27,765 bases of DNA from the IMG/VR virus record IMGVR_UViG_3300032218_002295; one strand, 5' to 3'. The notes under the pieces were generated by a model that had not been told where the DNA came from, searched no databases, and was given only the letters and a program-made list of their open reading frames with translations. Each line of letters opens with the position of its first letter. Position 1 is the stretch's first letter. This document shows, one piece after another, positions 2,348 to 27,765 of this stretch. The DNA is from an uncultured virus (IMG/VR IMGVR_UViG_3300032218_002295) (Duplodnaviria; Heunggongvirae; Uroviricota; Caudoviricetes). The translations under genes and the position numbers were made by a program.

Positions 2348-3790
2348 CTACTTGTTGTTGGATTTCAGCCAAGCATCGACTTCTTCGCCAATGGTCTCAA
2401 CTGCGGGATCTGTTGCTGTATTCGCTTCGTCTTTATGTAAGCCGAAGTCTGACTTGATATTGTATTCGTGTGTCATGAGGACAAGTGCAACCTTTTCTTG
2501 CTCTTCTTTATCGAAGTGAGCAACAAAGTTAGCAATTGCGAACTCATAATTGAACTGAACAATTTCTTCAAGCTCCATCAACATGTTGGTTGAGATAGGT
2601 GTATCAATCTCACCCTTAGCAGACTCACTGCGTAATTGCTTAGCAATTGTGAGAATTGCCTTGGACTTAACCAACTTGGCTTCTACTTCATCGTCATAAT
2701 CCCATGGAATTTGGATTGTAAAACGATTTCGCATTGCGAAGTTGAGTGGAGTGGTGCCGATGTAATCTGGATTCATAGTAGCAAATACAGTCAGGTCTGG
2801 ATGAGCCTGAATGGTTTCACCATGATGATCCAGAAGAATCAAACAACGACGACCATCAATCAAGGAATACAGGATGGTATAGATCTTAGGTGAGATGAAG
2901 TTCAATTCGTCAAGAATTAAAACACCACCATTACGGACAACGTCAGTTACTGGACCGTCAATCCACTCAAAGCCACCTTTACCGTCTGGAACATATTTTC
3001 CAATCAGTTGGCTTGGCTCAAGAGCAGCATTACCGGATACAGCAGCAAGACGTAGTCTATTTTTTGCAGCCCATGCAATAACAGATGTTGTTTTACCAGG
3101 GCCAGTTGGGCCGTAGATAAGAACTTCACGCTTATTGGCTCGTGCATAGTCGAAGACATCAAAGTCAAGAACACCACCCGTTAGATTACGGTTGATATAC
3201 TTGTCAGCAGCTTCGATAGGGGGAATACTTGCCAGGGCGATCTTGAGTTTGCCGGAAGAATTAACTTCCTCATACTCAACATCCTCAATCACAACGTCAG
3301 CCTGAACGGCGTCAGCGGCGATTGTTTGTGTTGGCGATGCAATGAATGGCGTTTCTTCTTGAGAATCACGTTGACGACGTAAGTCAATAACTTGTGCTTC
3401 TAATGATGTGTCATTGCTGCTGACCTGATCGTGAAGAGATGTGATTCGTTGTGCAACTGAACCAAACTCCTCATCTTTCTCAGCATTCTCATAAGCAGAC
3501 ATTGCCTTTGTAGACAATACAGGGGACCAACCATTCTCACGAATGGCTTGCTCATCTGCTGCTGTAACATGAATGCCAAGCGGCTTAACAGTAATGTATT
3601 CATTAGAAGACATAGTTGTATTCAACAATACAGGCAGAGAAGTTTCTTCCCAGCGGTTGTGTTTCCCCGCTGTTCCGTCTGTTGTGCGTGAATAGACTTT
3701 GGTTGTCCCATCGATAGGAACGATAAGAGTTTGTCGCTTCTTATCTTCCATAGACGGTTCATATGTCTCTACGAACATCGCTATATTCAT
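2348..3790 (-). CDS. MoxR/CbbQ/CobS-type AAA+ ATPase with long N-terminal extension
   Basis: Walker A GPTGPGKT, Walker B VLILDELN, sensor-1 ATMNP, Arg finger AMRNRF and the family-typical EWIDGPV segment. VWA partner is adjacent. Confidence 0.92.
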   Translation of the reverse strand: MNIAMFVETYEPSMEDKKRQTLIVPIDGTTKVYSRTTDGTAGKHNRWEETSLPVLLNTTMSSNEYITVKPLGIHVTAADEQAIRENGWSPVLSTKAMSAYENAEKDEEFGSVAQRITSLHDQVSSNDTSLEAQVIDLRRQRDSQEETPFIASPTQTIAADAVQADVVIEDVEYEEVNSSGKLKIALASIPPIEAADKYINRNLTGGVLDFDVFDYARANKREVLIYGPTGPGKTTSVIAWAAKNRLRLAAVSGNAALEPSQLIGKYVPDGKGGFEWIDGPVTDVVRNGGVLILDELNFISPKIYTILYSLIDGRRCLILLDHHGETIQAHPDLTVFATMNPDYIGTTPLNFAMRNRFTIQIPWDYDDEVEAKLVKSKAILTIAKQLRSESAKGEIDTPISTNMLMELEEIVQFNYEFAIANFVAHFDKEEQEKVALVLMTHEYNIKSDFGLHKDEANTATDPAVETIGEEVDAWLKSNNK

Positions 3791-4773: not shown

Positions 4774-5091
4774 CTAGATGTCGTGGATCTTTTTCTTGCG
4801 TAGTTTGGCACGTTGCTCTTGTGTCATTCCACCCCAGATACCATAGTTCTGTTCAGTATCAAAGGCAAACTGACGACAGGCGTCGATAACGGGACACTGT
4901 GCACAGATTGCTAAAGCTCTCTGTATTCGAGCGTCTTTAACTTCACCACGCTCCATGTCCTCATAGAAGAAATCATCTCCACCTATTTGATTACATAGGG
5001 CTTGATCTTGCCATTTCCAGTTTGAATATACTGGAGCTGGCATCTTCTGATTGATTAGGGGTGGTTTGTATCTCTTACTTTTCGTAGACAT
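4774..5091 (-). CDS. whiB: WhiB-family (Wbl) Fe-S transcription regulator
   Basis: W..QALC, DFFY, AICAQCPVIDAC (four Cys), YGIWGGMT turn and a basic C-terminus. Start uncertain (5091 or 5100). Confidence 0.95.
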   Translation of the reverse strand: MSTKSKRYKPPLINQKMPAPVYSNWKWQDQALCNQIGGDDFFYEDMERGEVKDARIQRALAICAQCPVIDACRQFAFDTEQNYGIWGGMTQEQRAKLRKKKIHDI

Positions 5092-5341
5092 CGATCTCAA
5101 GCCTCAATACATCTGATGTATCTTGACTTTGGAACAACTTAACTACATTCTTCTTGTCAACTACAATGCCTGAGTCATCCCATCCGTAAGGGGATACAAA
5201 TAGGAACTCACGCTTATCTTCACAAGAAGGGGTTACCATACGGACATCAGCGATGTTATTAAGATCGATAGGTGCGCCGTATTCATAACTGTATTTGCGT
5301 ATTTCACGTAACAATTTACGTGTTTTAATTGCTTTAAACAC
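5075..5341 (-). CDS. Hypothetical protein
   Basis: AAAGGAG SD before GTG at 5341. Overlaps the whiB start in an operon-like arrangement. Confidence 0.75.
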   Translation of the reverse strand: MFKAIKTRKLLREIRKYSYEYGAPIDLNNIADVRMVTPSCEDKREFLFVSPYGWDDSGIVVDKKNVVKLFQSQDTSDVLRLEIDVYEK

Positions 5342-7530: not shown

Positions 7531-7766
7531 TTTCTTAGTAGTCGGAACAGGTATCTAACCCACCAAGCATGGGTGGCAAAGAGCCTGTCTTTTGTTTCAT
7601 CAATACATACATCAAAGATTTCCGATTTGGGATTGTAATTAGTCATTACATCTTTGATTGCATCGTTGAGGAATAGAGAATCGTTTGCGGTGTAATCCTC
7701 GCGGTCTATCTTAGGCTCTTCACCTGAGTAATAGATAGATACAAGGATTGTCTTGCGCTTCAGCAT
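7527..7766 (-). CDS. Hypothetical protein
   Basis: AAAGGAGG SD and TAATG coupling. Confidence 0.75.
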   Translation of the reverse strand: MLKRKTILVSIYYSGEEPKIDREDYTANDSLFLNDAIKDVMTNYNPKSEIFDVCIDETKDRLFATHAWWVRYLFRLLRK

Positions 7767-7942
7767 TACTTGCCTCCTTTAGGCCAATAACAATCGAGGG
7801 AAGACTTGAAACAATAATGGTCTCCCATCCAATTGATGTGATCCATCAGGAACGTCCCAACGGAGAGCACAGCAATGATGAGGGAAGACCAGAAGATGTA
7901 TCTACACGCTGTTCTTACTTGGTAGTATCTCTTGGTTCTCAT
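7766..7942 (-). CDS. Small membrane protein, 58 aa (MRTKRYYQVRTACRYIFWSSLIIAVLSVGTFLMDHINWMGDHYCFKSSLDCYWPKGGK)
   Basis: Not in the track. GAAAGGA SD, basic N-terminus plus one hydrophobic helix, TAATG coupling to the next gene. Confidence 0.75.
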   Translation of the reverse strand: MRTKRYYQVRTACRYIFWSSLIIAVLSVGTFLMDHINWMGDHYCFKSSLDCYWPKGGK

Positions 7943-7972
7943 TGCATTCCTTTCACCTCACTACCAGATAGG

Positions 7973-8197
7973 TAGAGAGGGGCAGACACACTGAGCATAG
8001 AAGGAATGAGATTAAGAGTCTATGGCCGGCCTTTGTAACGAGTCCAACATCTTAGCTGAATTTATCTGTGTGTTATCTTCTCAGGCGAGCGACATCTATG
8101 GCGGGGTTCAGCACCACTCATGGTCTCCCGGATCATAGTAAAACGTCCTCACTCTTAGGCTACATCTTCTATCACTCAATGTGCCTGCCTCCCTCTA
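7973..8197 (-). ncRNA. Candidate structured RNA element B (~31-bp closing stem)
   Basis: Arms 7973-8003 and 8166-8197 are complementary. Four plus-strand A-C oppositions become G-U on minus. Nested TAAGAGT/ACTCTTA, CCGG/CCGG and GCTGAA/TTCAGC stems. Confidence 0.6.
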
Positions 8198-8262
8198 ACT
8201 TTCGCGGGAAAAATTTCGCGGGGGGATTTTTACTGTGGTAAAGCAATAGATACATAGAGAGA

Positions 8263-8359
8263 GATAGATAGTGGTATTCCCATACTCGCCACCCATTTAC
8301 AGGCATAAAGCCAATGGTGGTTGCTAGTAACTACAGGGAGTATCAGCCCACTATCTACC
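8263..8359 (-). other. Structured non-coding element C
   Basis: Minus strand GGTAGATAGTGG/CCACTATCTATC 12-bp closing stem with inner ATACTC/GAGTAT pairing. No ORF. Confidence 0.45.
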
Positions 8360-8410
8360 TTTCACCAGATACCTAGAAGCAAGACATCCAAATTAAACTT
8401 GAAAAAGTAT

Positions 8411-8448
8411 AAAAAAAAGGGGAGACCGTGATGATACACAGTCTCCCC
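8411..8448 (-). terminator. Intrinsic terminator after the six-Cys peptide gene
   Basis: Minus strand GGGGAGACTGTG-TATCAT-CACGGTCTCCCC followed by T8. Confidence 0.85.
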
Positions 8449-8461
8449 TCCTTCTATGAGA

Positions 8462-8566
8462 TTAGCAAGTAACCTCGGGTGAGCAATCCGACCACTCAAG
8501 TCGGCACTCGTCGATGTTATGCATTAGACATACATAACAGCCGTCTGTCTCACAGTCGTGGGACAT
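8462..8566 (-). CDS. Six-cysteine acidic peptide, 34 aa (MSHDCETDGCYVCLMHNIDECRLEWSDCSPEVTC)
   Basis: AAGGAGGTG SD 6 nt before ATG at 8566; intrinsic terminator 13 nt after the stop. Confidence 0.7.
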   Translation of the reverse strand: MSHDCETDGCYVCLMHNIDECRLEWSDCSPEVTC

Positions 8567-8620
8567 AGATACCACCTCCTTCCAATGGTGTTGCTATGGA
8601 GGTGTAAGGCTACAAGAGAT

Positions 8621-8634
8621 GTTTCACGTGAAAC
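8621..8634. promoter_or_regulatory. parS: parS-like palindrome GTTTCACGTGAAAC
   Basis: Exact match to the 14-bp Streptomyces/Mycobacterium parS core and 15/16 to TGTTTCACGTGAAACA. Intergenic. Confidence 0.65.
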
Positions 8635-8722
8635 TATCTGATAATAGCCAGAGATGCCCGTCCCAGACCTGGTGTTACAACCGGAGAGCGAGTGCCTGCC
8701 TTATGTAGTGGCTAAACAGCCA

Positions 8723-8756
8723 TAGCCAGACAGGAGGTTTCCCCCCTGCCTGACTA
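8723..8756 (-). other. 15-bp RNA hairpin with GAAA tetraloop
   Basis: Minus strand TAGTCAGGCAGGGGG-GAAA-CCTCCTGTCTGGCTA. Three G-U pairs and a GNRA loop define the strand. No U tract. Confidence 0.7.
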
Positions 8757-8777
8757 GAGCCTTTTAGACCCTGCCGA

Positions 8778-9353
8778 TTACCCTTGGAATGTTCCCTTGA
8801 GTAATGCGAAGATTGGCAGCAAGAGATTTTTAGCCTCTTGTGTCATCTCCTGACCCAGAACCGCCTCAACAGATGCTTTGAAGGCTGGTGCGGTAGAAGC
8901 AAGTGATGCTTGTGCTTCTGCCTTAGCAGCCTTATCCGCTTCCTTCTTGAGAGCGATAGCAGCAGCCTTGGATGCTAGAACATCCTTGGCTTCATCGACA
9001 GACATGGAAAGGCAAGACTTGATGTCTTCCCAATTGACTGAGGTGAATGCGGCAACAACTTCTGCCTCAATGCCCTTAGCAATAAGAGCACCGAGATAGA
9101 TTGGTCGTTGATACCCATTGGTAAGGAACTTCTTATCAACAGACTCAGCGTCTGTCTTATCTCCACGATTTGCCATAGCAGCAATGACCTTGCCACGAGT
9201 GTCCGATAGCAGGTCGTCAATAGACCCGCCGTCATAGAAGAACGAAGCAACAGCGCGACGAACTTCTGGGGCGGCGAGATTTGCGTTACCAGCAACGAAT
9301 ACACTCTGTGATACAGAGTCAAGGCTTACAGCCTCTTGTGTGATTGTAGACAT
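8778..9353 (-). CDS. Hypothetical Ala-rich helical protein, first gene of the leftward arm
   Basis: 191-aa ORF with protein-like composition and a weak AGGT SD. No recognisable motif. Confidence 0.8.
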   Translation of the reverse strand: MSTITQEAVSLDSVSQSVFVAGNANLAAPEVRRAVASFFYDGGSIDDLLSDTRGKVIAAMANRGDKTDAESVDKKFLTNGYQRPIYLGALIAKGIEAEVVAAFTSVNWEDIKSCLSMSVDEAKDVLASKAAAIALKKEADKAAKAEAQASLASTAPAFKASVEAVLGQEMTQEAKNLLLPIFALLKGTFQG

Positions 9354-9602: not shown

Positions 9603-9784
9603 TAGCGGGCTACATCATCAACCGCCGTTCATTATGTATGGTATTGACCACCGATAATGACCCCCATGGGTTAAACGAACGCTGTGAACCATATCTCCAG
9701 GTGAGACAGGCAACCATGACCTATGGTGTGATGGCAGTGGCCTAAAAAATTTCAAGGTCGGGGGAATATTAAGCAGTGGCTTGG

Positions 9785-9793
9785 TGTTATTAT
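9785..9793 (+). promoter_or_regulatory. Extended -10 promoter for hsp20
   Basis: TG-T-TATTAT, followed by a 5' hairpin (TGTCCT...GGGACA) at the expected +1. Confidence 0.5.
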
Positions 9794-9846
9794 TAGCTGT
9801 CCTGCCAATCGGGGGACAAATCAACCTATATCGTCTAAGGAGATAT

Positions 9847-10281
9847 ATGCACATCACTTATGCTCAGAATCAATCTCAAACCTTCAATTCACTATACCCA
9901 GGCTTCACTAAATGGGCAATTGGGTTTGATCCTCTAATTAATACTTTCAATCAGATCTCACAGTCTAAAGATAACTATCCTCCATATAACGTTCGCAAAG
10001 AGGGGGAGCAACACATCCTAGAACTAGCTGTAGCTGGATTTACTAAGGATGAACTAGACATTGAGGTCAAAGAACTTCTACTAACAGTGACGGGCACCAA
10101 AGCCAAGAATGAGGCGGAGTATGTTTATCAGGGCATCTCAGCAAAGAGCTTCTCTCGGGAGTTCGCTTTGGCGGAGTATGTCATCGTCAAGGGAGCCAAG
10201 TTCCAGGATGGTCTACTTACTATCACCCTGGAGCAGGAGCTTCCTGAAGAGAAAAAGGCTAAAACCATCAGTATCGAGTAA
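9847..10281 (+). CDS. Small heat-shock protein (Hsp20/IbpA-like)
   Basis: IGFD, NYPPYNV, ILELAVAGF, YVYQGI...FSREFAL, A.FQDGLLTI and C-terminal IxI (ISI). AAGGAG SD before ATG at 9847 (track start 9781 is too long). Confidence 0.95.
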   Translation: MHITYAQNQSQTFNSLYPGFTKWAIGFDPLINTFNQISQSKDNYPPYNVRKEGEQHILELAVAGFTKDELDIEVKELLLTVTGTKAKNEAEYVYQGISAKSFSREFALAEYVIVKGAKFQDGLLTITLEQELPEEKKAKTISIE

Positions 10282-10372: not shown

Positions 10373-10939
10373 TTGACTACACTTGCTGCTATACAAGGTA
10401 AAGGCTGGTCAGTAATAGGTTGCGATAGCCGTGCATCCGATGAAGACGGACGTTTTATGGAGTTAGCTACTCCAAAGGTCATTGATAATGCTGGAGTACT
10501 CATTGCAGTCTCTGGAGCATCTCGCGGTGGAAACATTACACAGTTCGGATGGAAACCCCCTAAGCCACGTGCAGGCGAAGATCTAGATATCTTTATGACT
10601 AAGAAGTTTATCCCTAGCATGCGTAAGGCTTTCCAGGATGCAGGTTATGATGCTAAGGATGATGGAGATGCTGCTTGGCAGGATTCTAACCTCATTATCT
10701 CTGTAAGAGGAACCCTCTACCCGATCTTTAATGATTACTCTTGGGATAGAGAAGCCCGCAACGTTTATTACGCCGGATCTGGTGGCGACCTTGCAATGGG
10801 TGCATTAGAGATATTAGATTACACAAAAGCAAAAACACCACAGGCCGCCGAAAAACTGCTCCGCAAAGCTATTGAAGCTGCGTGCAAGCATGACATATAT
10901 TCGGGTGGAGAGATTCACACATACATCCAAGAAGCGTAA
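10373..10939 (+). CDS. HslV/proteasome-beta-like Ntn threonine protease
   Basis: M-TTLAAI N-terminal Thr nucleophile, GCDSR (Asp17), Lys near position 33 (TPKV), YYAGSGG, and C-terminal HDIYSGGEI. Confidence 0.88.
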   Translation: MTTLAAIQGKGWSVIGCDSRASDEDGRFMELATPKVIDNAGVLIAVSGASRGGNITQFGWKPPKPRAGEDLDIFMTKKFIPSMRKAFQDAGYDAKDDGDAAWQDSNLIISVRGTLYPIFNDYSWDREARNVYYAGSGGDLAMGALEILDYTKAKTPQAAEKLLRKAIEAACKHDIYSGGEIHTYIQEA

Positions 10940-16603: not shown

Positions 16604-17143
16604 TTATCCGGGAAATTTAGATAACCAGATTGTCACAGCTGGTTCTGATGCAGACCCATCGTATGCATTAGGGCCTACGCCCCAAGATCCAAAGTTCTCA
16701 CCATGTGAGCTCATGTAGTATGCGGCTTGAGCATTTGTAACTGGATCGAGTAGCTCAGCATCTTTAGAGATACCAAACTTTTCCCGTCGTTCTGATCCTA
16801 GGCTTCCTCGCATGTTAATTTGAAAAAGACCATAAGAATCGTCGCCAGTTGATGCGTTTCCATTATGGGATAGGGGATGGCCACGAGATTCTCTCATTAC
16901 AATGGCCCAGGCAGTTCTTAGAGATTTTCCTGAAAAACCTACTAACTTGAGTAGATCTGCCAGTTCCGTATCTGAGAGGCTTGTTGCTCCCCGATATTGG
17001 TCTAAGCCTGTCTTTACTTGTGTAGACACAGTTGACCCGTCATTAACGGGACCTGCGGGTTCTGCGGCCCAAGCCGATTGACTTAAAGGAAGTAGAACCG
17101 TTAAAGCTAATACACTTACTTTACGTTTTCCATTAAAATTCAC
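16604..17143 (-). CDS. Secreted lysozyme-like / SLT lytic transglycosylase
   Basis: Signal peptide ending AWA, AIVMRES (catalytic Glu), DSYGLFQIN, LLDPVTNAQAA. AGGAG SD before GTG. Confidence 0.9.
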   Translation of the reverse strand: MNFNGKRKVSVLALTVLLPLSQSAWAAEPAGPVNDGSTVSTQVKTGLDQYRGATSLSDTELADLLKLVGFSGKSLRTAWAIVMRESRGHPLSHNGNASTGDDSYGLFQINMRGSLGSERREKFGISKDAELLDPVTNAQAAYYMSSHGENFGSWGVGPNAYDGSASEPAVTIWLSKFPG

Positions 17144-17280
17144 ACTATCTCCTAGGCTAGAAGGCCAGTTCTTACCCTATATGACTGTCACTCATATAAA
17201 GCAACCTAGCGTCTGTCTGCTAGGTTCGTACTGCAACCCTTTTGTTACGTAGTTAGTGATGGCCCAGTCGCCTGGGCCAT
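17144..17280 (-). promoter_or_regulatory. Structured 5' leader (four hairpins) of the transglycosylase gene
   Basis: ATGGCCCAG-GCGA-CTGGGCCAT; GTAAC/GTTGC stem; AACCTAGC-AGACAGAC-GCTAGGTT; TATATGA-GTGACAG-TCATATA; then the SD. Confidence 0.65.
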
Positions 17281-17286
17281 GGATAT

Positions 17287-17316
17287 ACCGTAGCAGTAAC
17301 TACAGGGGGTCTGCAA
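17287..17316 (-). promoter_or_regulatory. SigA-type promoter of the transglycosylase gene
   Basis: TTGCAG-N18-TACGGT with TGn extension. The predicted +1 falls at the first base of the GNRA hairpin. Confidence 0.55.
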
Positions 17317-17362
17317 CCGCCAACGTGCGGTAGACTTTATTGTTCTAGAAAGGACGCTAAGT

Positions 17363-17626
17363 ATGCCAAAATGCAATATTTGTGATAATAAGGCAGTATT
17401 CCAGATAAATAACCCTGGAGCTGAGGTTCAACGTTTTTGTAGTGAACACCTGCCATGGTTTATTAACCGCGTAATTCTACCTGCACACGTACAAGTTTTG
17501 AATGAACCAAAGCCAGAACCAGTGAAGGAAGATAAGGCAGCTAATGAGAGTCGAAAGAATAGCAACAAAGCAAGTACACCCGGTACCGACGAAAGTGCAC
17601 CAGCCGAGGGGTCCCTTCCCGCCTGA
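17363..17626 (+). CDS. Small zinc-binding protein (CNIC...FCSEH)
   Basis: AAGGA SD; CxxC plus CxxH; TAGACT -10 upstream. Confidence 0.7.
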   Translation: MPKCNICDNKAVFQINNPGAEVQRFCSEHLPWFINRVILPAHVQVLNEPKPEPVKEDKAANESRKNSNKASTPGTDESAPAEGSLPA

Positions 17627-18744: not shown

Positions 18745-18967
18745 AAAGTCTATTCAGAGAGAACTAACTCGAGTTCAGAAGAGAATTCAGCTTTTGAACA
18801 ATGACGATCTTGTTGCATGGGCTGAAAACTCTATTTATGATATTGCTAGAAACCTTTCGTCCTGGAGAAAGACAAAAGACCCTTTTTACTTAGACGAAGC
18901 AAATATGGCATCTGAAGTTCTTCATGAGGCTATCCACCTAGTTCATAAGAGAGAAACTGATGCGTGA
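18704..18967 (+). CDS. Hypothetical helical protein immediately upstream of terminase
   Basis: Overlaps the terminase start. Alternative ATG at 18716. Confidence 0.7.
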   Translation: MGQKMIQIKFKKRKKSIQRELTRVQKRIQLLNNDDLVAWAENSIYDIARNLSSWRKTKDPFYLDEANMASEVLHEAIHLVHKRETDA

Positions 18968-20648
18968 AGATTATGATTTTGAAGACTTTGAGCAAAATAG
19001 CGACGAGTTTGATTTAGCTGATGACATCCTTAATTTTGAGGATGAAGAAGAGGAAGTAGAATATGAGCCCGAAGAAGAAGACGATGATCTTGATGATGGT
19101 GATCCTGACGGCTTTACTCCCCTTAGCGATGAAGAGTTTGAAGAAGAAGATGATGGGTTGGATGAGCTCTCTAGAGAGTTCGTTGCATCACTTGTAGATA
19201 AAATTATGTCTTTCATGAAGCTCCTAGTGGGCCATGATCTACACCCATATCAGAAGCCTTTAGCACGCCGAATTATTGAGTCAGTAATTATTAATGACGG
19301 TGAAGAAGTAACAGCTCTTGCAGCACGTCAGTCAGGTAAATCTGAAACTATTGCTAATACTGTAGCTACCCTTATGGTTATTCTTCCACGCTTGGCACGC
19401 ATGTATCCTGACCTATTAGGAAAGTTTGGGGACGGTATCTGGGTTGGCATGTTTGCTCCTGTACAAGCACAGGCAGAAACATTGTACTCTAGAACCGTAT
19501 CCCGCCTAACAAGTGAGAATGCTCTTGAGATCCTCGGAGATCCCGAGATTGACGATGCCACAGCTAAAAGCCCAGGAGTTACACGAAATATTAAACTTAA
19601 GAACTCTGGCTCTACCCTTATGATGATGACAGCCAACCCAAGAGCTAAAATTGAATCTAAGTCTTTTCACTTAATAATTATTGATGAGTGTCAAGAAGCA
19701 GATGACTTTATTGTTTCTAAGTCTATTTCCCCTATGGGAGCTTATTACAACGCTACAATTGTAAAGACTGGTACCCCAACAACTTCTAAGAATAACTTTT
19801 ATAGGGCTATTCAACTTAACAAACGACGTCAAACAAGCCGTTCTTCCAAACAGAACCATTTTCAATGGGACTGGAAAGATGTGGCAAAATTTAACGCTAA
19901 CTATGAAAAGTTCATCCGTAAAGAAATGCTGCGAGTGGGAGAAGAGTCTGATGAATTTCAGATGTCTTATAATTGCAAGTGGTTGCTAGAACGAGGTATG
20001 TTCATCACCTCAGGAATTATGGACGATCTTGGGGATACATCTCAAGAAGTGCAGAAGTCATACCATATGTCGCCCGTAGTTGTGGGTATTAATCCAGCCC
20101 GTAAAATGGACTCTACAGTTGTAACAGTAGTGTGGGTTGACTGGGACCGTCCAGATGAGTTTGGATATTACGATCATAGAGTACTTAATTGGCTAGAAAT
20201 CCAAGGAGATGACTGGGAAGAGCAGTATTTCCAAATAGTAAACTTCTTAGGAAACTATGACGTATATGCCGTAGCTGTAGACGCTAACGGTGTAGGAGAT
20301 GCCGTAGCCCAACGTTTAAAGATGCTATTACCTAGAGCTGAGGTAATGTCTATAACCTCCAGCCCCACCGAACAATCTAAGCGTTGGAAGCACATGCAAG
20401 CCCTTATTCAACGTCAGTTAATTTCATGGCCTGCCCATGCAAAGACTCGACGCCTAAGAATTTGGAAGCGTTTTTATCAGCAGATGGTGGATGCTGAAGT
20501 TCGGTATAAAGGACCTAACTTTTTAGTGGCTGCCCCCGATGAAGCTCATGCCCACGATGACTTTGTTGACTCCTTGGCCCTGGCCTGTTCATTAACTCAA
20601 GAGCTAGTTATGCCTACTGTTGAAGTTAGTTCGTCACCGTTCTTTTAA
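18960..20648 (+). CDS. terL: Terminase large subunit
   Basis: LHPYQ Q-motif, Walker A ARQSGKS, Walker B LIIIDE, coupling motif GTP, VAVDANGVG, and C-terminal HDDFVDSLALA. Confidence 0.95.
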   Translation: MREDYDFEDFEQNSDEFDLADDILNFEDEEEEVEYEPEEEDDDLDDGDPDGFTPLSDEEFEEEDDGLDELSREFVASLVDKIMSFMKLLVGHDLHPYQKPLARRIIESVIINDGEEVTALAARQSGKSETIANTVATLMVILPRLARMYPDLLGKFGDGIWVGMFAPVQAQAETLYSRTVSRLTSENALEILGDPEIDDATAKSPGVTRNIKLKNSGSTLMMMTANPRAKIESKSFHLIIIDECQEADDFIVSKSISPMGAYYNATIVKTGTPTTSKNNFYRAIQLNKRRQTSRSSKQNHFQWDWKDVAKFNANYEKFIRKEMLRVGEESDEFQMSYNCKWLLERGMFITSGIMDDLGDTSQEVQKSYHMSPVVVGINPARKMDSTVVTVVWVDWDRPDEFGYYDHRVLNWLEIQGDDWEEQYFQIVNFLGNYDVYAVAVDANGVGDAVAQRLKMLLPRAEVMSITSSPTEQSKRWKHMQALIQRQLISWPAHAKTRRLRIWKRFYQQMVDAEVRYKGPNFLVAAPDEAHAHDDFVDSLALACSLTQELVMPTVEVSSSPFF

Positions 20649-21493: not shown

Positions 21494-23200
21494 ATGAGTA
21501 TTGATTTTAGTCCTCCGTCGTATAGAGCCGCGTCCTCTGATCTTACTATTTCTATTTCCCCACTGGGACTTGTTGAACTTGCTGATGAAGAGTTTGAAGT
21601 ACACGGTCCTCGTCTAAACCGGTACTCACTTAACTGGGCAATGTATCTCGGCCACCACTGGCCTTATCGCCGTGAACTTGGCGAATCACAGATGGTATAT
21701 AACTACTACCGTGCATTTACAGATTATTTAATTAACTTTACTTTTGGTCGCGGAGCATCATTCCGTAGCCCCCACTCAACTGAAGCAATCATTCCAGACA
21801 TCTTAAAGCGTGTGTGGGAAACTGATAATGATAAGCATGGTGTTCTTTGGGAAATGGGACAGCAAGGCGGGGTCTCAGGAGACTGCTTTGTTAAAGTAGC
21901 CTATGAAGAGGGTTTTGAAGATCCATCAGGACGTAAGCATCCAGGAAAGGTTCGTGTTCTTCCTTTAAATGCTTCTTTCTGTTTTCCAGAGTTTCACCCA
22001 CACGATCGTTCTCGTCTTATTAGATTTAAACTCAAGTATCGTTTCTGGGGTACATCTCTAGAAGGTACTCGTCAGGTATATACATACACTGAGATTCTTA
22101 CAGACGATCGCATTGAAGAATATATCAATGACGAACTTATTGATTCACGCCCTAATCCAATTGGCGTAGTTCCTATTGTTCATATCCCTAACGTACGTGT
22201 ATCAGGTTCCCCATGGGGACTTTCTGATTGTCACGACATCATCGTACTTAATCGTAATTATAACGAAGTAGCTACAGACGTTGCAGACATCATTAACTAC
22301 CATGCGGCACCCGTTACAGTTATTACCGGTGCTAAGGCCTCGTCCCTAGAAAAGGGACCTAAAAAGGTCTGGGGCGGTCTTCCTAAAGACGCCCAAGTCT
22401 TTAACCTTGAGGGCGGAGGATCCGGCCTTGACGGTGCTATGAAATATCTAGAAATCATTAAGCGTGCTATGCACGAAATGATTGGTGTTCCAGAAACTGC
22501 ACTTGGTCAGATCCAGCCTATTTCTAATACCTCTGGTGTGGCGTTGTCTATTCAATTCCAGCCATTGATGAATCGCTATCAGCAAAAAATAGTTCAGTAT
22601 GGTGAGGGTCTTCGTAGAATCAACGAGCTTATTCTTTTGACCGTTGCTTTAAAAGAACCAGAATTACTTACCTACAACCCAGACTTTAATGGTCCAATTC
22701 GTGGAGATCAACTTCCCGTATTAGATCCAAATAATTCAATGACCTACCAGAGCGTAGTTCATTTCCCACAACCTCTACCTCTCGATAAGCTCATTGTTCT
22801 TAATGAGATCCAGAGTAAGATGGGTCTTAATCTTGAGAGCCGTCGTGGAGCCCTTGCTACTCTTGGCGAAGAATTCCCAGATGAAAAGCTTGAAGAGATT
22901 CGTACAGAGCTTATTGAAGACGCCAAATCAGACGGCGCACTTAACCTACTCAAAGCACAGGTTAACTCAGCTATTGCCTCTCTCACCGGAATTATCCCTG
23001 ACGGTGGTGGGGAATTGCCTCCAGGAGCTGCTCCTGGGGACGGGACCGGTCCAGGACCTAGCGGACAGCCTGGGGTTGTTACCCCATTTGAGGCTCAGAC
23101 TCTGGATGAGATGGCATCAGAACTCGTTACCAAAGCCTATGGAACTAAACTTCCAACACAGCGTGGTGGCGATGACGATATGAAGTACCCAGAAGGGTAA
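21494..23200 (+). CDS. Portal protein (SPP1 gp6-like)
   Basis: 568 aa after terminase; YNYYRAFTD, NPIGVVPIVHIPN, PWGLSD and NTSGVALSI motifs typical of the family. Confidence 0.9.
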   Translation: MSIDFSPPSYRAASSDLTISISPLGLVELADEEFEVHGPRLNRYSLNWAMYLGHHWPYRRELGESQMVYNYYRAFTDYLINFTFGRGASFRSPHSTEAIIPDILKRVWETDNDKHGVLWEMGQQGGVSGDCFVKVAYEEGFEDPSGRKHPGKVRVLPLNASFCFPEFHPHDRSRLIRFKLKYRFWGTSLEGTRQVYTYTEILTDDRIEEYINDELIDSRPNPIGVVPIVHIPNVRVSGSPWGLSDCHDIIVLNRNYNEVATDVADIINYHAAPVTVITGAKASSLEKGPKKVWGGLPKDAQVFNLEGGGSGLDGAMKYLEIIKRAMHEMIGVPETALGQIQPISNTSGVALSIQFQPLMNRYQQKIVQYGEGLRRINELILLTVALKEPELLTYNPDFNGPIRGDQLPVLDPNNSMTYQSVVHFPQPLPLDKLIVLNEIQSKMGLNLESRRGALATLGEEFPDEKLEEIRTELIEDAKSDGALNLLKAQVNSAIASLTGIIPDGGGELPPGAAPGDGTGPGPSGQPGVVTPFEAQTLDEMASELVTKAYGTKLPTQRGGDDDMKYPEG

Positions 23201-24122: not shown

Positions 24123-25199
24123 ATGGCATCAGCCGTAACAGGTACCGGCAATCTAGCCGCTGCCCCAACAGCGTATTCTGGCGCTAACAGCCAGCTTACA
24201 CAAGCAATTCAGACAATCTGGTCGAAGGAAATCCTTTTCCAGTCAATGCCTATTCTTCGCTTCGAACAGTTCGCTGTTAAGAAGACAGAACTAGGAGTTG
24301 CACCTGGTCTCCAGATCAACTTCATGCGTTACAACAACCTTGGCTTCGCATCTTCACTAGTTGAAGGTGTTCGTATGTCAACAAACGCACTTACAGCACA
24401 GCAGTTCTCAATCACAGTTGCAGAGCATGGCTATGCAATTGCTGTTTCAGAGCTTCTATTGAACGCATCATTCGATGACGTAATGGCATCAGCTTCACGT
24501 CTTCTTGGCCGTAACATGGCCCTATACCTAGATGGTCAGGCACGTGACACACTCATGGCCGCATCTTCTGTCATCTACGGTTATGACCGTACAGGTGTAT
24601 CAGGAGTCAACTCATGGTACGACGCAGGAACAGCAGCAACATCACGTGCAGAGCTAACAGGTACTTCATACCTAACAACAGCAACCGTTAAGGATGCAGT
24701 TGAAACTCTAGCAACCAAGAACATCCCAAGGTTGGGCGAGACCTACGTTGCATTCGTACACCCACACCAGTCACGTCGTCTCCGCGATAACGCAGAGTTC
24801 ATTGAAGTGACTAAGTACGCTGCTCCAGGTAACTTCATGCTAGGTGAAATTGGTCGTCTATACGACACAGTATTCATCGAAACAACTCAGGTTCAGAAGG
24901 TAACAAACGGTGCTGGTTCAGGCTATTCAGCTGACACAGCAGTAGCTGCATCTTCAATTGTTTACCCAACTGGCGGAGGTTACACAACTCCTGTTACAAA
25001 GACAGGTAACGGTAACAAGGATCGTTATTCAGCAATCTTCATTGGTGATAACGCATTTGGTCACGCTATTTCACTTCCAGTTGAACTCCGCGATGGCGGT
25101 ATTCTTGACTTCGGTCGTGAGCATGCATTGGCTTGGTACGCTATTTACGGTCTTGGTCTTATTACTGACCAGTCTGTATTGATTGCAGAAACCAACTAA
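24123..25199 (+). CDS. Major capsid protein (N4-gp56-like family)
   Basis: 358 aa; LRFEQFA, YVAFVHPHQ, GEIGRLYDTVFIET and DFGREHALAWY; strongest codon bias; follows scaffold. Confidence 0.93.
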   Translation: MASAVTGTGNLAAAPTAYSGANSQLTQAIQTIWSKEILFQSMPILRFEQFAVKKTELGVAPGLQINFMRYNNLGFASSLVEGVRMSTNALTAQQFSITVAEHGYAIAVSELLLNASFDDVMASASRLLGRNMALYLDGQARDTLMAASSVIYGYDRTGVSGVNSWYDAGTAATSRAELTGTSYLTTATVKDAVETLATKNIPRLGETYVAFVHPHQSRRLRDNAEFIEVTKYAAPGNFMLGEIGRLYDTVFIETTQVQKVTNGAGSGYSADTAVAASSIVYPTGGGYTTPVTKTGNGNKDRYSAIFIGDNAFGHAISLPVELRDGGILDFGREHALAWYAIYGLGLITDQSVLIAETN

Positions 25200-25768: not shown

Positions 25769-26866
25769 GTGGCAAATATTCAAACCCTAGCCAATAGGCT
25801 TAGAGCCGAGATTGGCGATATAGGTAGATTCTTTGATGAGAATTTCACTGGCGATGGCCGCACCCGTAGATTCCAACTTTCTGTTTCTCCTGTAAAAGGA
25901 TTATCTCTTAAAGTTTTAGTAAATGGGGTAGATGTATCTGCCACCACTGCTGTTGAAGAAGTTAGCGGATTATTTGAACTAGCTAACGTTGCAGCTGATA
26001 ATGCAACAATCGAAGTATCTGGCACACAGTATAAATACTTTACTGATGTTGAAATCCAGCAATATGTAATTAATGCTTTTTATGAGCATGCTTATACCAC
26101 TACCGATTCAAATGGCAGTTTAGCAACTATGGCCTCCCTACCGGTTATTGATGAGTACCCATTAGTAATCCTAGCTACAAGCATGGCCCTCTATACTCTT
26201 GCTACAGATGCTGCATTTGATATTGATATTATTTCACCAGATGGTGTTTCTATTCCTAGATCTGAGCGTTACCGCCAGCTTATGGAAGTAGTACAGCAAA
26301 GAAAAGAACAATACCGTGAGCTTTGTTCTTTGCTCGGTATTGGTATGTACCGTATTGAGGTTACTACTCTACGCCGCATTAGCCGACGCACAAATCGCTA
26401 CGTACCTGTATATCGTCCACAGGAAGTTGACGACGGTTCTATTCCACAAAGAGTTTATTTATCTATGCCTACTTATGGAGATATTACCCCTCCATCATCA
26501 GTTCCAACAAAAGACTTGTCTATGTACTCAGGAGATGATTTCTGCCTAGACTTGGCTTTTGACCATGATTTAACTCACTATACAGCCCTCTCTCAAATTC
26601 GTTTATATCCCCAGCTTCCAGCTAATCAAGTCGGACCATTACTACTAGCTACCTTTGAAATAACTAAATCTGCCTCTATATCAGGGGGTATTTTAGATAA
26701 ACTTAGCTTATACTTACCTAGTTCTGTTACAGCAGACTTGCCTCGCACAGCATATTGGGACCTACAACTTACGGACAATACTACCGGACACGTTAAAACA
26801 TACCTCCAAGGCAAGATCTTTACCAAGGCTCAGGTAACAACAACTAACGGAGATTTCCATGTGTAA
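25769..26866 (+). CDS. Probable head-completion / head-tail adaptor protein with extra beta domains
   Basis: [11 protein letters not shown]...[11 protein letters not shown] adaptor-like helices interrupted by an FTGDG beta domain. C-terminal [10 protein letters not shown]...AYWDLQL...TYLQGK domain. Position after capsid. Confidence 0.7.
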
Positions 26867-27765
26867 TATTTGCGGTGACCCAAGCAATAATTGCGAAGAG
26901 CCACGCCTTCTTGGTATTTCCGGTGATGGAAATCCAAGCGTTATTCGTTTAGGTTTAGATTCAGGATCAATGCCTTCGGGCTCAACAGGCCCTATGGGAC
27001 CTACAGGTCCAATTGGACATACTGGACCTACCGGTTCTACTGGCCCAACTGGCCCATCAGTTACTGGTCCTACAGGCCATGCTGGCCCAACAGGTGTAAC
27101 TGGCCCAACAGGTTCACGTGGTTTACAGGGAGATCCAGGTCCTACAGGACCTCAAGGTGCTACAGGACCTCAAGGTAACCTAGGACCAACGGGTGCTACT
27201 GGCGCCGCATCAACTGTTCCAGGCCCAACTGGTCCTCAAGGACCTGCAGGTTCTACGGGTGTTGCGGGCCAATCAATTACTGGACCTACTGGTGCACGTG
27301 GTGCAACCGGCCCACAAGGTGTTCCTGGTGAACAAGGTGTTGCAGGTGCAACAGGCCCTACAGGTGCAACTGGTTCACAAGGAACAGCTGGACCTACAGG
27401 TGCAACAGGCACTAGAGGTTTACAGGGATTAGAAGGACCTACAGGTCCTCAGGGCGATCAAGGTTCACAAGGAACAGCTGGACCTACAGGTGCACAAGGC
27501 GCACGTGGTGCTACAGGATCTGCGGGTATTCAAGGTGTTCAAGGTGTAGCTGGAGATACTGGTCCTGCTGGACCAACAGGCCCTAGAGGTCTTGTTGGAC
27601 CTACAGGCGGTGTAGGACCTACTGGTGCAACTGGTGCTGCAAGTACAGTTCCTGGACCAACAGGACCTACCGGTGCTCAAGGTACCTCAATTAATATTCA
27701 AGGAAGTCTTGCAAATTCTGGACTTCTATCTACAATCACAAATCCACAACGCAATGATGCTTACA
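26859..27765 (+). CDS. Collagen-like (Gly-Pro-Thr-rich) fibre protein, truncated at window end
   Basis: Not in the track because it has no stop. GGAG SD, ATG at 26859 ([19 protein letters not shown]...), then Gly-X-Y triplets from ~26979 to ~27690. Confidence 0.92.
27372..27494 (+). repeat. 33-bp exact direct repeat within the collagen region
   Basis: GGTTCACAAGGAACAGCTGGACCTACAGGTGCA at 27372-27404 and 27462-27494, in frame and 90 nt apart. Confidence 0.9.

Follow-up and report, generated by a model that had tools for sequence, protein, structure and literature searches.

The ydaO riboswitch (RF00379), which responds to c-di-AMP and has a pseudo-symmetric fold, controls wall hydrolase genes of actinobacteria, rpfA among them. 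Riboswitches of the purine type are built around a three-way-junction aptamer with several conserved junction nucleotides, and distinct riboswitch classes that share one ligand are known. Phages possess translational operators with alternative mRNA folds, as in lambda cIII and Mu com/mom. A further RNA, the YjbJ motif, has been described as a weak candidate riboswitch in front of a lytic transglycosylase gene of Streptococcus, with 40 representatives, all from Streptococcus, placed ~30 nt upstream of the Shine-Dalgarno (SD) sequence of a gene with an AUG start (PMC11109978).

The locus described here is the leader of an SLT_3 lytic transglycosylase gene in an uncultured phage. With ydaO it has in common a long structured leader, a gene for a peptidoglycan-cleaving enzyme, an actinobacterial setting and a presumed action in cis; unlike ydaO, it gives no covariance-model match to RF00379, folds into a three-way junction with two capped hairpins, and is carried only by phages, whose likely host order is devoid of RF00379 and of the c-di-AMP cyclase domain in the 41 genomes sampled. 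It is similar to purine-type aptamers in its closing helix, its two near-equal hairpins, its loops of 7-8 nt with conserved sequence and its place directly 5' of the ribosome-binding site (RBS), and differs from them in junction strands of 0-2 nt, in the lack of conserved loop-loop complementarity in our alignment and in having no Rfam match. Like lambda cIII and Mu com/mom, to which we liken it by description, it belongs to a phage gene at which rival folds may block or free the RBS, possibly under a protein effector, but it is much larger and conserved across many phages. It is also, like YjbJ, an orphan conserved RNA motif 5' of a lytic transglycosylase gene; YjbJ, however, is chromosomal and from a different phylum. 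The literature searched, at the level of listings and abstracts, contained no description of the leader motif.

The transglycosylase gene and its leader

The window, by which we mean the whole stretch of 27,765 nucleotides that was analysed, has a G+C content of ~44% and the content of phage DNA, with genes for TerL (18960-20648), portal (21494-23200) and major head protein (24123-25199) on the plus strand. The leader lies on the minus strand within a 219-nt gap that separates divergent genes (Table 1). A preliminary description of this DNA, made from the sequence, had proposed a leader of 137 nt in front of the transglycosylase, and we find it at that length, followed by AGGAG and a GTG start. 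The encoded protein matches Pfam SLT_3 (7.7e-17, 62 bits against a cut-off of 27) and SLT (2.9e-6), with the signal peptide called by eye from the translation and not by a predictor. Between this gene and the convergent gene sits a terminator-like hairpin; ending there, the SLT gene looks like a single-gene unit on the strand opposite to its neighbours. A simple terminator scan did not list this hairpin, probably because its A and T runs pair together.

Table 1 Positions of the leader, its predicted promoter, its gene and the type B leaders
Feature	Position	Strand	Basis or remark
Putative -35 hexamer, TTGCAG	17316-17311	-	TTGC kept in 81/89
Box in promoter spacer, TGTAGTTAC	17304-17296	-	TGTAnTTAC nearly invariant in alignment A4
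Putative extended -10, TGcTACGGT (TGnTAnnnT)	17295-17287	-	Conservation pattern
Leader	17280-17144	-	137 nt, 5' of SLT_3 transglycosylase gene
P1 hairpin, 9 bp, GCGA loop	17280-17259	-	All 9 pairs with compensatory changes
A/C-rich single-stranded linker CACUAACUACGUAACAAA, candidate anti-RBS strand (P0)	17258-17241	-	Complementarity to GGAGAUAGUG
P2 5' strand: P2a AGGGU, bulge UG, P2b CAGUAC	17240-17228	-	RNAalifold and covariation
P3 hairpin, 8 bp, loop AGACAGAC	17226-17203	-	All 8 pairs compensatory, 98.9% of cells pair
P4 hairpin, 7 bp, extendable, loop GUGACAG	17201-17175	-	All 7 core pairs covary
P2 3' strand: GAACUG (P2b), GCCUU (P2a)	17171-17161	-	Same covarying pairs as 5' strand
Near-invariant tail CUAGCCUAGGAGAUAGU with Shine-Dalgarno (GGAG 17152-17149)	17160-17144	-	Alignment A4
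GTG start codon	17143-17141	-	Same in 89/89 sequences
Out-of-frame ATG at +11	17133-17131	-	TG invariant, A before it in at least 90% (G otherwise)
SLT_3 lytic transglycosylase gene, 179 aa	17143-16604	-	N-terminal signal peptide predicted from translation
Terminator-like bidirectional hairpin	16593-16561	.	A5, GCCCCCAG, loop, CUGGGGGC, T5; read from sequence
Type B leader carriers	~200 nt before TTG		L031, L036, L044, L046-L047, L049, L053, L056, L058, L064-L066, L070, L073-L075, L077, L080-L081

Leader and gene recur together in uncultured phages

A protein-guided scan of viral contigs returned 596 proteins related to the SLT protein, and the loci of the best 80 were taken further. Four close relatives already displayed compensatory changes in three hairpins and GNRA loop variants in the first, and a covariance model (R1) built from these four and the window gave full-length matches in 48 of 81 sources, at 85-235 bits, each ending at the start codon. 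Scanning with a motif pattern extended the family to at least 120 stretches of uncultured viral contigs, with a GTG 13-14 nt downstream of the TCTAG box in every true instance. Among the matches listed, 114 ORFs behind the motif are complete, with lengths of 171-187 aa, and a further 55 extend past the end of the retrieved DNA; all of the 22 diverse motif-linked representatives that we compared with Pfam carry SLT_3. The signal-peptide regions of the motif-linked proteins diverge widely and the leader is far better conserved, so that the leader would also be a usable marker for this phage group.

Among cultured phages, a DNA search gave no match, and a protein search gave 22 records, none covering 80% of the query, with no cultured carrier; the best protein matches there come from Streptomyces phages at 48-50% identity. 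The comparison with Rfam that the preliminary description had suggested likewise yielded no family, either at gathering score over the whole window or at E<=10 over positions 17050-17450 (Rfam 15). That description had also seen no ydaO consensus, in agreement with the absence of any RF00379 match at the gathering score or at E<=10, and had spoken of an uncharacterised cis-acting structured RNA, a view that the strong conservation, covariation and strand asymmetry of the leader bear out. The leader is a real, conserved, folded RNA family that is absent from Rfam.

A long-range helix closes a three-way junction

The structure was analysed on an alignment (A4) of 89 distinct sequences made with MAFFT and not fitted to any structure. 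A 187-nt stretch folds better than its shuffled versions (z = -2.95), 2 of 200 shuffles being equally good. For a structure of 36 pairs in four helices (P1-P4), 91.7% of alignment cells pair, against 72.4% in shuffled alignments (0 of 500 reach the observed value) and 25-45% in slid controls, in which partners were moved by 1-3 columns. Compensatory changes are found in 31 of the 36 pairs among the 89 sequences, and this conservation in relatives is more telling than the folding energy. G.U outnumbers A.C by 321 to 53 among 2998 cells; judged by this excess, the RNA has the same orientation as the SLT gene, and it is very unlikely that the element works as double-stranded DNA.

In the covariation model, the architecture is a 5' hairpin, P1, followed by a long-range helix, P2, which closes a three-way junction with P3 and P4. 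Mutual information and RNAalifold, applied independently to A4, both pointed to P2. Its first part, P2a, pairs AGRR of an AAAAGGG box with YYYU of a UGGCYYU box. An invariant UG bulge separates it from P2b, in which CA and the variable base next to it pair with another variable base and the UG that follows. Covariation is seen at pairs 102:180 (GC 61, AU 25, GU 3), 103:179 (GC 83, AU 5, GU 1) and 109:175 (AU 53, GC 30, UA 1, GU 1, unpaired 4), and the strands of the junction measure only 0-2 nt. This arrangement replaces the series of four consecutive hairpins in the preliminary description. Its perfect 9-bp GCGA hairpin, P1, stands as read, with loops that are often GNRA across the relatives, and two of the three further hairpins, P3 and P4, are borne out by covariation; the remaining one, hairpin 2 (GUAAC/GUUGC), undergoes no compensatory change and conflicts with the covarying long-range pair.

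The unpaired parts that are invariant or nearly so are the GUGACAG loop of P4, identical in 88 of 89 sequences, a GUUGCA element, UGG, and a 20-nt tail that includes SD and GTG. The loop of P3 is far more variable, with only A1, G2, A3 and A7 invariant; the twin GACAG loops noted earlier are thus a feature of the largest clade, but not of the family as a whole, in which P3 loops such as AGAAAGAG, AGACATAG, AGAAATAG and AGACCGAC occur. The complement of GUGACAG is found nowhere else in the window, that of the P3 loop occurs in the window at chance level only, and inspection of A4 revealed no conserved loop-loop complementarity.

Several other elements were considered and rejected. An ATG in P1 opens an 11-codon frame that could have encoded a leader peptide, but this frame is confined to the window's clade and is not conserved. 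A 10-nt complementarity in the window (GTAGTTACTG/CACTAACTAC) is lost in relatives. RNAalifold also proposed a helix between CCCUG of the promoter spacer and the SD, yet this part of the spacer varies (GGGGTG, GTACTG, ACACCG and others) with the tail unchanged, and CCCUG lies upstream of the predicted transcript start. A separate matter is the out-of-frame ATG at +11 within the gene, which is conserved at the nucleotide level (GTG in three sequences) while residues 4 and 5, whose codons overlap it, vary (N/D/Y/H/S and G/E/A/D/V). The short frame that it opens is not conserved among the few sequences inspected by eye, where both its length and its sequence looked variable.

A predicted promoter places the transcript start at P1

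Sequence conservation begins abruptly at GGTTGC and is low farther upstream. All 89 sequences have TAnnnT, with diverse middle triplets, at a distance of 18 nt from TTGC, and 83 of the 89 have TG in front of it; in actinobacteria the -10 consensus is TANNNT. From this conservation pattern and that consensus, we infer a -35/extended -10 promoter (TTGC, 18 nt, TGnTAnnnT) with +1 at ~17280, at the foot of P1, which fits the start that had been predicted earlier at the foot of the first hairpin. A scan with the E. coli consensus for promoters of the sigma-70/SigA type, whose -35 and -10 hexamers are 16-18 nt apart, calls nothing here.

The near-invariance of TGTAnTTAC is unusual for a promoter spacer, and this box may be a regulator site. 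In the window it occurs once at 0 mismatches; if up to 2 mismatches are allowed, 3 matches are obtained where chance predicts 2.5.

Competing pairings suggest a translational gate

Our preferred reading, held with moderate confidence, is that this RNA is a phage-borne, cis-acting structured 5' leader of ~137-140 nt that most likely gates translation of the SLT_3 gene; as such it would probably control when the transglycosylase is made. Transcription would proceed from the leader's own conserved promoter of host type, giving an mRNA that begins with P1 and continues with the A/C-rich linker, the compact P2/P3/P4 domain, the SD and GUG. The SD begins 8 nt past P2a, so that a sensor-like domain would abut the ribosome-binding site. 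The P2 domain would bring the upstream linker alongside the RBS, which the linker could then cover. A second possible cover is the pyrimidine tract, which when not so engaged supplies the 3' strand of P2a. The P2 fold would compete with a near-isoenergetic GUAAC:GUUGC fold.

In every variant the linker can pair with the RBS, always in the same register; in the window, 8 of 10 positions of CACUAACUAC match GGAGAUAGUG. Across the family the resulting helix, P0, is 71% paired and contains one covarying pair, 86:194 (U-A 63, C-G 7), in which sequences with a GGGG SD have C in place of the linker U. The near-invariance of the tail puts most RBS pairings beyond the reach of covariation. Predicted occlusion is strongest in the GCACCUCC clade, where the minimum free energy (MFE) structure pairs the linker with GGAG and GUGC, the spacer being bulged, and leaves the SD unpaired with a probability of 0.17-0.22 and the start codon with one of 0.01-0.03; linker:RBS duplexes of this clade reach about -10 kcal/mol (p 0.01-0.05). 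The duplex of the window's own clade, at -6.9 kcal/mol (p = 0.22), is no better than in shuffles, and a U-to-A change in 19 sequences weakens the pairing further. When linkers and tails were swapped, cognate pairs were weakly favoured over non-cognate ones (-7.7 against -6.7 kcal/mol). The alternative hairpin between pyrimidine tract and SD loses one pair in about half of the sequences, which have C at column 181.

Over 87 sequences, the calculated energies of the P2 and hairpin-2 folds lie 2.0 +/- 3.2 kcal/mol apart. The thermodynamic MFE favours the hairpin-2 fold in 63 of these 87, whereas covariation favours P2: where column 103 changes, its P2 partner 179 follows and its hairpin-2 partner 93 does not. 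The strongest non-Watson-Crick covariation, 86:90 (UU 63, AA 19), weakens linker:SD pairing and hairpin 2 together, and could thereby preserve a balance between the folds. A different switch had been suggested in the preliminary description, in which CCTAG of the third hairpin's arm pairs alternatively with CTAGG overlapping the SD. This pairing has 89% standard pairs, no better than shuffles, and no compensatory change, and 37 of the 89 sequences cannot form the pair at its centre, so that we do not retain it.

Whereas the conservation of the leader, its structure, its strand and its link to the gene are established, the promoter with its +1, the gate and an effector that acts on it are inferred. 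We weigh three possibilities for the effector almost alike: a phage or host protein is slightly ahead, a small molecule comes next, and close behind is the case of no effector at all, the structure simply providing fixed tuning or stabilisation. If the leader is regulatory, it constitutes a new, well-defined RNA family of ~140 nt, with a three-way junction, an invariant loop and an invariant bulge. Its role would be to control a secreted enzyme that cleaves peptidoglycan, in uncultured phages whose probable hosts, the Nanopelagicales, are a dominant group of freshwater bacteria. Few phage-specific classes of riboswitch or operator are known, and the leader is a further candidate.

Orthologous genes carry a second, unrelated leader

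Among the best 80 of the 596 SLT loci, 33 are without the motif described so far (type A). At 30 of these 33 we found a different conserved leader, type B, of ~185 nt, which lies behind its own extended -10 and runs up to a TTG start codon that is invariant. RNAalifold gives type B a structure of 48 pairs, 14 of them with compensatory changes, which includes a predicted hairpin covering the SD. Type B has no match in Rfam, the sole hit being a chance-level one to snoR101 (E = 0.66), and model R2 does not detect it. The two leaders are alike in gene family, position, possession of an extended -10, non-AUG start, covarying helices and absence from Rfam; they differ in that their sequences and folds are unrelated, and in that the hairpin sequestering the SD is clearer in type B.

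The presence of two unrelated, elaborate leaders at the same gene suggests that control of this transglycosylase matters and, if the leaders are regulatory, argues for strong selection on tight post-transcriptional control. The second leader also offers a natural paired system for finding the effector.

The phages probably infect Nanopelagicales

A WhiB-family transcription factor gene in the window (4774-5100, minus strand, Pfam 2.3e-20) points to an actinobacterial host, WhiB being a marker of actinobacteria and their phages. We also scanned cellular assemblies, using one genome per species. Six stretches were returned, of which one (L206, 1484-1645, minus strand) was confirmed by the covariance model and the other five were chance matches. 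This sole copy in a cellular assembly lacks P1 and retains P2-P4 and the tail; the contig that carries it, 15 kb long and phage-like, belongs to a MAG of Candidatus Nanopelagicaceae. Within the order of this MAG, the motif is present in 1 of 151 genomes, namely the MAG itself, and the SLT protein in 1 of 101 genomes sampled; type B DNA was found in none of 301 genomes in a search that had no positive control. The host is thus probably a member of Nanopelagicales, tentatively so, the binning of a MAG being weak evidence for a host.

In the same order, we detected RF00379 in 0 of 41 genomes sampled (control positive in 2 of 14) and the c-di-AMP cyclase domain (DAC, PF02457) in 0 of 41 (control positive in 11 of 14). 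With neither in the sampled genomes, c-di-AMP is unlikely as the effector if the host is Nanopelagicales.

Alternative explanations for the leader

The best-surviving alternative, possible though on the unlikely side, is a true small-molecule riboswitch, in which P2/P3/P4 would be an aptamer that binds some metabolite or signal of the host and thereby shifts the P2 fold against the alternative fold, exposing or hiding the RBS. The leader has the conserved, covarying structured domain expected of a riboswitch (91.7% paired, 31 of 36 pairs compensatory), a multi-helix junction with an invariant unpaired UG bulge, UGG and GUGACAG loop, two near-isoenergetic folds and a single gene family with which it is strictly associated. 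The pair of unrelated conserved leaders at one gene likewise resembles riboswitch classes that share a ligand, types A and B then being two classes for one signal. Against this, junction strands of 0-2 nt leave no clear ligand pocket, the distribution is confined to one phage group (1 of 151 genomes in the order of the MAG), and the gene context offers no candidate ligand. A bolder version, which we regard as speculative and fairly improbable, has types A and B as phage riboswitches that read the same host-cell signal and time production of the exported lytic transglycosylase. If true, the two would form a riboswitch pair for lysis timing or wall remodelling that is confined to phages of the most abundant actinobacteria in fresh water, hosts that apparently lack c-di-AMP signalling.

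A fixed element that does not switch would need only P1 and the compact domain, which would block 5'-end-dependent decay and set a low, constant translation from GUG. A hairpin at the predicted 5' end, an invariant non-AUG start and RBS pairing that is not significant in the window's own clade are all compatible with it. A stabiliser, however, has no need of a 7-nt loop and a bulge that are both invariant, nor of a near-invariant 20-nt tail, and P1, its most stabiliser-like part, is dispensable in L206, which makes this explanation rather unlikely.

We regard transcription attenuation, with P3 and the U-rich run behind it as an intrinsic terminator, as very unlikely. A terminator scan does flag P3 with GCTTTATATG in the window, and one clade has six U after P3, but this run supplies the 5' strand of P4, where it covaries with the opposite strand, and variants such as ACCCUAGAC have no U run at all. 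P3 was accordingly rejected as an intrinsic terminator, its U run being replaced in several lineages.

Control by c-di-AMP through a ydaO-like riboswitch would suit a wall hydrolase gene in a phage that carries an actinobacterial-type WhiB, but the lack of a match to RF00379 or any other Rfam family even at E<=10, together with the absence of both RF00379 and the DAC domain from the genomes sampled in the order of the sole cellular carrier, a tentative host assignment, leaves it highly improbable. A signal at the DNA level, such as repressor operators or a packaging site near the terminase operon, might be expected in a divergent-gene region rich in inverted repeats upstream of the packaging module, but it can be dismissed as extremely improbable, given stems that conserve pairing and not sequence, a G.U to A.C ratio that is a signature of single-stranded RNA, and a long-range helix with fixed spacing to the start codon that would make no sense for a DNA site.

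Further features of the window

The divergent neighbour of the leader, an ORF at 17363-17626 on the plus strand, encodes 87 aa beginning with MPKCNIC and containing CxxC and CxxH motifs, and several relatives have an M-x-K-C-x-x-C start at the equivalent position. The product is a small zinc-finger protein, and as such a candidate RNA- or DNA-binding partner adjoining the leader. Elsewhere on the plus strand, an HSP20/alpha-crystallin gene (9781-10281) is followed by an ORF (10373-10939) with a C-terminal match to a proteasome subunit (2.3e-6), and an ORF at 26859-27764, which runs off the end of the window, has collagen triple-helix repeats (4.3e-31) and probably encodes a fibre or tail protein. 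A gene pair on the minus strand encodes a VWA-domain protein (350-2335) and an AAA_5 ATPase (2348-3790), the latter matching PHROG 249 ('porphyrin biosynthesis') and thus CobS/CobT-like. Finally, a stretch of ~1 kb (7766-8778) has no ORF of at least 60 aa on either strand.
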